From positions 1 to 20,117 of the IMG/VR virus record IMGVR_UViG_2778261163_000008: a stretch of DNA of 20,117 nucleotides; one strand, written 5' to 3'. Below, one piece after another: positions 13,812-13,851 of this stretch. The notes below the pieces were generated by a model. That model saw only the letters and a list, made by a program, of their open reading frames with translations. It ran no database searches and had not been told where the DNA came from. Within the stretch, counting starts at the first letter, position 1. Every line of letters begins with the position of its first letter. The translations under genes were made by a program, and so were the position numbers. The stretch is from a virus. Taxonomy: Duplodnaviria > Heunggongvirae > Uroviricota > Caudoviricetes.

Positions 13812-13821
13812 TCTCCGGACG

Positions 13822-13842
13822 AAAAAAAACCGCCGAAGCGGT
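13822..13842 (-). terminator. Intrinsic-terminator-like hairpin plus U-run between T and H
   Basis: Minus strand reads ACCGC-TTCG-GCGGT followed by TTTTTTTT (5-bp stem, UUCG tetraloop, 8 U), 9 nt after the T stop and directly before the H ribosome binding site. Confidence 0.5.
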
Positions 13843-13851
13843 TATGTTGAC

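Follow-up and report, generated by a model that had tools for sequence, protein, structure and literature searches.

Genes of the late operon and the start of H

The window, meaning the whole stretch of 20,117 nucleotides analysed here, comes from a virus of the Caudoviricetes (IMG/VR record IMGVR_UViG_2778261163_000008). All of its long open reading frames lie on the minus strand and form a lambdoid late operon with a head and tail of the HK97 type. The gene order is portal, protease, major capsid gene (16832..18049), connector genes, tail completion gene, V, G and T; after T follow H, which encodes a tape measure protein of 1077 aa, then M, L, K, I, J, a Lom-family gene and the side tail fibre genes. 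The DNA is about 98% identical to that of Escherichia phages Evi, phi467, PhiR49_2 and others, and in Evi the Q antiterminators are encoded upstream of the same late genes.

The first-pass annotation had placed a terminator-like hairpin between chaperone genes and a tape measure gene, and the identity of both neighbours is borne out by Pfam matches. The tail assembly chaperones G and T (13852..14540, minus strand) match Phage_TAC_1 (2e-57) and Phage_tail_T (6e-20), respectively. H (10578..13805, minus strand) matches Phage_HK97_TLTM (1e-93), TMP_3 and Tape_meas_lam_C, and is thus a tape measure gene of the HK97 type. G occupies about 14525..14154, and T lies in the -1 frame relative to it, with its match in the ORF 13852..14142 and its stop codon TGA at 13854..13852, only 8 nt upstream of the hairpin. 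The 3' end of G reads GUU AAA AAA AAG UAG and includes an A8 run (14165..14158, minus strand), which is likely a -1 slippery site giving a G-T fusion, and past this run the T frame stays open as far as 13852.

The start codon of H is most likely GTG 13805, and not ATG 13811 as given in the ORF list and in the Evi record. This reading of the sequence is preferred because the N-terminus MATLRELIIK, translated from GTG 13805, is invariant in four relatives (including HK97, Salmonella phage FSL SP-016 and Stx2 phage 1717), and because the GGAG ribosome-binding site of H (13813..13816, minus strand) lies 7 nt upstream of GTG 13805. ATG 13811 is only 1 nt past the GGAG. With the start at 13805, the T-H gap extends over 13806..13851 (46 nt), which corrects the earlier limits of 13812..13851. 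A CGYCYGGAG motif past the U-run is common to the window, SP-016, Stx2 phage 1717 and a Pseudomonas floridensis prophage.

Sequence and fold of the hairpin

The hairpin AACCGC-UUCG-GCGGUU is located at 13828..13843 on the minus strand. Its stem of 6 bp pairs A13843-C13838 with G13833-U13828 (four G-C and two A-U pairs), and its loop is UUCG (13837..13834). A run of eight U follows (13829..13822), the first two of which pair with the AA at the stem base. Beyond the run, the minus strand continues with CGUCC, GGAG (13816..13813), ATG at 13811 and GTG at 13805. A G+C-rich stem-loop on the transcribed strand with an uninterrupted U-tract directly 3' of it is the make-up of an intrinsic terminator. 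The hairpin and 8-U run described in the first-pass annotation, on the coding strand between the T stop and the H start, are therefore present as described.

Minus-strand folding and terminator prediction, both proposed there as checks, were carried out. The consensus terminator scan lists the hairpin 13828..13843. Folded alone (32 nt), the hairpin is the minimum free energy structure at -8.5 kcal/mol, compared with -2.4 +/- 1.6 for shuffles (z = -3.8, with none of 200 shuffles equal to it). In a context of 71 nt the minimum free energy structure is a different, competing one, which is no better than that of shuffles (z = -0.52). The case for a terminator rests on the local hairpin and its conservation, not on the 71-nt fold. 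The window allele is also the weakest of the 38 four-base-loop alleles compared (-8.5 against a median of -11.8 kcal/mol). The length of the U-run varies among the closest relatives, here prophages with 98-100% identical tape measure N-termini (including L021 and L047), being T8 in 46, T7 in 22 and T9 in 2. Taken together, the element is read as a Rho-independent terminator, and we infer from its sequence that transcription would end there. A bidirectional terminator was considered and rejected for the window allele, the plus strand continuing as ATGTTGAC with no T-run.

The position of the element next to the ribosome-binding site brings in the idea that it controls translation of H, either by pairing of the 3' half of the hairpin with the CCGGAG region or by the U-run serving as a ribosome (S1) landing site. 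The 71-nt fold does pair CUUCGGCGG with the GGAG-containing region, and the U-run is always 5-15 nt upstream of the ribosome-binding site. However, that fold is the one that does not exceed shuffles, the many alleles with spacer AUGGGUGAAAU do not allow the alternative pairing, and no Rfam family is found at the site, so that translational control is considered very improbable. A leader or attenuator RNA with an alternative fold, or a riboswitch, was likewise rejected on the absence of an Rfam match, the z-score of the fold and the lack of conservation of the pairing. The Rfam scan covered the whole window at gathering thresholds, and its sole match was IS009 (RF02111), a full-length match at 41..239 (minus strand) with 230 bits against a gathering score of 117, lying in or adjoining the last tail fibre assembly ORF (1..582).

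Conservation of the terminator before H

Failure of the hairpin to be conserved in related phages had been named earlier as a result that would speak against it, and the comparison shows that it is conserved. From GTDB genomes, IMG/VR and GenBank phages, 211 loci with the tape measure start MATLRELIIK were assembled, and a junction was scored positive if the last 60 nt before H held a GC hairpin and a T-run, with at least 5 T in the 8 nt past the stem and a run of at least 4. By this test, a GC hairpin with T-run is found in 77 of 84 distinct junction alleles (92%) from Escherichia, Salmonella, Klebsiella, Enterobacter, Leclercia and others, with the G-C stem core ending 12-25 nt from the H start codon. 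Of 10,249 random 60-mers drawn from these loci on the same strand, only 2.0% passed this test; the figures were 1.1% for the opposite strand and 0.9% for shuffles.

The sequence of the hairpin is much more variable than its presence. Among the alleles are 48 distinct hairpin cores; the 38 cores with four-base loops have 25 loop sequences, and UUCG occurs in only 6 of them, indicating that the identity of the tetraloop is not what is conserved. At each stem position of these 38 cores 3-5 pair types occur, of which almost every one is Watson-Crick or wobble, in a register anchored on each sequence's own hairpin; this count is thus circular, and the non-circular evidence is the frequency test (92% versus 1-2%). 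The pair types were counted by script, since MAFFT re-gapped the hairpin-anchored 26-mers. RNAalifold, applied to an unanchored MAFFT alignment of 30 natural upstream regions, found zero pairs because hairpins of differing length and distance fall out of register.

Several exceptions were found. No terminator is present at the junction of Morganella phage IME1369_02 or of loci L110 and L120, and in Pantoea L012 and Cronobacter ENT39118 the hairpin is kept and the U-tract decayed. The existence of such relatives indicates that the terminator is not indispensable. Two phages with an unrelated tape measure gene served as controls: HK022 has a gap of 19 nt and no hairpin, and the T and H genes of lambda share 8 nt, with no terminator between them.

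Sister elements and counterparts in other phages

The hairpin before H is not the only one of its kind in the window. A strict scan, which asked for 4 or more G-C pairs with a T-rich tail, returned six sites on the coding strand versus one on the opposite strand. The six coding-strand sites fill the six gaps between genes that measure about 45 nt or more (46-76 nt), as confirmed by reading the sequence, and at every other junction of the operon the genes overlap or are at most 14 nt apart. Since the six gaps together make up only about 1.8% of the window, this co-location is not due to chance.

Apart from the element before H, the six consist of the following, all on the minus strand. A hairpin with U7 follows the major capsid gene (16793..16812), and a hairpin with U6 lies in the gap between the tail completion gene and V (15267..15283); the former has an HK97 putative terminator at the same relative place, and the latter a terminator of HK544 and HK97. 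The 60-nt gap between I and J holds the hairpin AAACCGCC-UGCG-GGCGGUUU with a weaker U-tract (8213..8233), and HK97 has a putative terminator just before J. Strong hairpins with U6 are located between J and the lom-like gene, identified as Lom by Pfam (4674..4693; -15.7 kcal/mol, z = -4.2), and between the lom-like gene and the side tail fibre gene (3997..4018; seen by terminator scan and fold). Directly past the post-capsid terminator stands a second hairpin, GCCCGC-ACAGUGUU-GCGGGC (16767..16786, minus strand), which abuts the AGGAG of the next gene and forms a tandem arrangement with that terminator.

A hairpin can come to stand beside a T-run by chance, and loose matches are indeed common, a loose consensus scan of the window giving 32 sites where 18 are expected from shuffles. 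Such an origin for the element before H has a negligible probability in view of its presence in 92% of 84 alleles over a background of 1-2%, and of the intergenic position of all six strict coding-strand matches.

Existing annotation of related phages indicates the same. The HK97 record (AF069529) carries a coding-strand "putative terminator" after portal, after gene 5 (capsid), before and after gene 12 (major tail), after gene 15 and hence directly before H, before I, and before J. In HK446, HK106, HK544 and HK633 a 'rho-independent terminator' is annotated at the same pre-H junction. According to the genome paper of phage L, terminators within the late operons of lambdoid phages are not unique and have roles that are unknown; either partial termination or the halting of transcription begun without antitermination is proposed there. 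A terminator within a co-transcribed tail operon had been called unexpected in the first-pass annotation; this is not borne out by the annotations of HK97, HK446, HK106 and HK544, by the phage L paper, or by the six elements of the window. Terminators in the middle of HK97-like late operons are normal punctuation and not operon ends.

The pre-H terminator of HK97 (AF069529, 8398..8422) resembles that of the window in lying at the same junction and on the same strand, in its GC stem with T7-8, and in its distance of 12-13 nt from the H start, and the tape measure N-terminus of HK97 is 92% identical to that of the window. The stems and loops differ (ACCCGC-UAUCAA-GCGGGU in HK97, AACCGC-UUCG-GCGGUU in the window), as do the spacers (AUGGGUGAAAAU and CGUCCGGAGAAUGAGU, respectively). 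HK97 also has the gene of a 62-aa YebO-like gp15 upstream of the terminator, whereas only 8 nt are present there in the window. Phage L, which is P22-like, also has predicted rho-independent terminators inside a late operon with a single promoter; these belong to a different module, after the podovirus procapsid genes, and no moron slot is described for them. Homologous junctions are also carried by the lambdoid prophages of E. coli O157 Sakai, with the allele AAACCUGC-UGUG-GCAGGUUU-U8 (PMC7547250, the Sakai Term-seq study). Published 3'-end mapping for tail operons was sought, and the EHEC Sakai Term-seq papers report only tR' and sRNA loci.

The T-H junction as a moron slot

A moron has a promoter and a terminator of its own, with which it is expressed while the prophage is repressed (PMC3594210), and the gene 15 moron of HK97 is located at the T-H junction (PMC3594210, summarising Juhala et al. 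2000). The junction under study is the classic HK97 gene-15 moron site, a point that the first-pass annotation missed. The T-H junction of the window aligns with that of HK97 and has the features of an HK97-type slot, in that it lies between G/T and an HK97-family tape measure gene and has a terminator at its 3' edge by the ribosome-binding site of H. The element belongs with the HK97-type pre-H terminators, which are known and annotated already, and stands here at an empty moron slot.

No moron gene is present in the slot of the window, the 8 nt between the T stop and the hairpin leaving no room for an ORF. A scan for an own sigma-70 promoter found nothing promoter-like in 13806..13851; the nearest match (13802..13774, 9/12) is inside H, and the total of promoter matches for the window is below that of shuffles. 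As judged from the sequence, the slot is empty with only the terminator left, and the element is not itself a moron.

For 203 of the 211 loci the spacing of T stop and H start was measured, with 150 nt or less taken as empty. By this measure 124 slots are empty and 79 filled. Filled slots hold at least 17 unrelated cargo families, mostly small envelope proteins, which include a zinc-ribbon membrane protein of 110-114 aa (Zn_ribbon_3), several small lipoprotein families and the YebO-like gp15. Examples are a 114-aa membrane protein with a zinc ribbon (L022, 2054..2500), a 113-aa lipoprotein with no Pfam match (L034, 2052..2500), and, in Brenneria, a 1.7-kb insert with a reverse-strand 290-aa ORF and a lipoprotein gene (L015, about 813..2500). 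The Pseudomonas floridensis prophage, in which H starts differently and without the exact MATLRELIIK motif, was examined separately; its slot holds a 238-aa HNH-domain protein (L017, about 1571..2494). The cargo proteins are candidates for superinfection exclusion or lysogenic conversion, and the list of them is a source of such candidate genes.

The terminator is found irrespective of cargo. Scored by slot state over 78 alleles, it is present in 22 of 26 empty and in 50 of 52 filled slots. The hairpin may be resident or may travel with the cargo. One cargo family, the zinc-ribbon protein, precedes at least 8 different cores, a single spacer type is found past many cores, and core, cargo family and spacer type are combined freely with one another. 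The kind of terminator was known already, and the comparison refines the picture of it, namely by its presence in 92% of 84 alleles, its independence of cargo and the number of cargo families (at least 17).

FSL SP-016, Leclercia and Enterobacter prophages and E. coli IMG/VR contigs such as L022 have a 16-nt hairpin, AACCGCUUCGGCGGUU, identical to that of the window, followed by U7-8 and CGUCYGGAG, and in L022 the entire downstream sequence matches the window identically. These loci have a gap of about 440 nt with a gene of 110-114 aa (Zn_ribbon_3) and a promoter-like TTGACT region, an insert that is absent in the window. In six IMG/VR contigs whose tape measure protein is 99% identical to that of the window, the gap is 447 nt, encodes the 114-aa zinc-ribbon membrane protein and closes with exactly the hairpin, U-run and spacer of the window.

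Such pairs suggest that the hairpin could be a vestigial scar, left behind by deletion of a zinc-ribbon moron gene and its promoter and without present function. The core of the window, CCGCTTCGGCGG, closes zinc-ribbon cargo in 19 loci, including the relatives with 99% identical tape measure protein, and also closes 70 empty slots. The original definition of a moron includes a terminator (PMC3594210), and HK022 and lambda, with no moron here and a different tape measure gene, are without one. A neutral relic should decay, however, and decay is apparent only in Pantoea L012 and Cronobacter ENT39118. Intact terminators, different in stem and variable in loop, persist in several separate empty-slot lineages (the window, Stx phages, mEp506 and variants). 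In the mEp506-like empty alleles, for which the alignment is unambiguous, the changes are confined to the loop, to G-C becoming G-U, or to the outermost pair. The window and SP-016 agree at all 16 nt of the hairpin but have divergent spacers immediately past it. The empty allele is also very common, the T-H junction being found at 90% identity or more in 877 of 5,426 complete E. coli genomes (about 16%), in every case on the chromosome. As the origin of the window allele a scar is possible; as a statement of function it fits poorly with retention in empty slots, and an element without present function is regarded as improbable.

Proposed roles of the terminator in lysogeny and lytic growth

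Read from sequence and from relatives, the intrinsic terminator probably acts on unmodified polymerase, which it stops in the lysogen, and is read through by Q-modified polymerase after induction. In the lysogen, unmodified RNA polymerase would be halted at the hairpin, whether it came by leak-through from the constitutive late promoter, by spurious initiation within the head and tail genes or, in filled slots, from the promoter of a moron, and transcription would be kept out of H-M-L-K-I-J. After induction, Q-loaded polymerase would pass this element and its five sister terminators and produce the full late transcript. On such read-through RNA the hairpin may in addition block exonucleases at the 3' end, favouring the V-G-T segment. 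Q of lambda narrows the RNA exit channel and prevents formation of the terminator hairpin, and it is for this reason that Q-loaded polymerase would bypass the terminator (PMC9388147). Read-through by Q-modified polymerase, as proposed in the first-pass annotation, is plausible, the 98%-identical Evi encoding Q upstream of the same late genes. A role in stopping unmodified polymerase agrees with the logic of morons (PMC3594210) and with one of the two proposals made for phage L. For the empty-slot state, no specific upstream promoter was identified whose transcripts need stopping.

Two known systems can be compared with this arrangement. The tR' of lambda is likewise an intrinsic terminator in the late unit of a Q-encoding lambdoid phage, and the same read-through is presumed (PMC9388147, PMC7547250); tR' differs in preceding all late genes, as an on/off switch, while the element of the window is about 12 kb into the operon, judged by Evi. 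In Tn916 an insulator terminator is combined with processive antitermination, blocking premature expression when the element is quiescent and being overridden by antitermination that the element itself encodes (PMC11658703). Tn916 is unrelated as an element, in its host and in its antitermination mechanism, and the likeness is a functional analogy for the insulator role only.

Another role would be exerted in lytic growth, with the element setting stoichiometry as an attenuator, as an mRNA 3' stabiliser, or as both. In the first form, Q-modified polymerase terminates at some frequency; in the second, the hairpin blocks 3'-to-5' exonucleases after endonucleolytic cleavage. The messages for V, G and G-T, whose products are required in high number, would thereby outnumber or outlast those for H, M, L, K, I and J, of which each tail takes a few copies. 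Stem-loops at 3' ends protect upstream mRNA in polycistronic operons of E. coli. By gene order, the element stands exactly at the boundary of high-copy and low-copy tail products, and a boundary between abundant (V, G) and scarce (H to J) products is better explained by an attenuator or stabiliser than by an element that insulates the lysogen. The retention of the terminator in 22 of 26 empty slots, where no moron is present to be terminated, also agrees with it, as does a similar hairpin after the major capsid gene, whose product is the most abundant. Partial termination that cuts downstream mRNA is the other proposal made for phage L. A sister terminator, however, lies directly upstream of V, which encodes the most abundant tail protein, and attenuation there would oppose the stoichiometry; Q-loaded polymerase is highly resistant to terminators (PMC9388147); and in lambda, whose T and H overlap, this stoichiometry is reached without a terminator. 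The attenuator, stability and ratio-setting roles raised in the first-pass annotation are the main alternative, less likely than the stopping of unmodified polymerase.

It can further be proposed, tentatively and as a possibility of lower probability than the stopping of unmodified polymerase, that the terminator did not come with morons but is resident in the HK97-type tail module as a punctuation mark under selection, retained by empty slots and making the junction a landing pad for genes. If so, an incoming gene that brings only a promoter would automatically be insulated from the tape measure gene, and the presence of at least 17 unrelated cargo families at exactly the T-H junction would be explained. 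On this view the hairpin might, in lytic growth, also adjust how much V/G message is made relative to that of H-J. Near-identical prophages with and without a moron share the same terminator and form a natural test case that is very common (about 16% of complete E. coli genomes). This case bears on what intra-operon terminators do in Q-controlled operons, be it insulation in the lysogen, attenuation or stabilisation of mRNA.

For annotation, the comparison corrects two gene starts, those of H (GTG 13805) and V. The true start of V is probably at about ATG 15244, as predicted from the sequence, because an AGGAG precedes this codon and because the layout of HK544 and HK97 is the same; the start annotated in Evi (equivalent to 15295) engulfs the pre-V hairpin 15283..15267. 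A separate irregularity was seen in the record of Stx2 phage 1717 (L006, 840..950), in which the annotated T-frame gene ends early at a TGA and the conserved C-terminal peptide DPFAALEDAL... is picked up in a different frame that runs as far as a TAA immediately ahead of the terminator. The sequence of that record suggests either a frameshift mutation or a sequencing error in the T gene.
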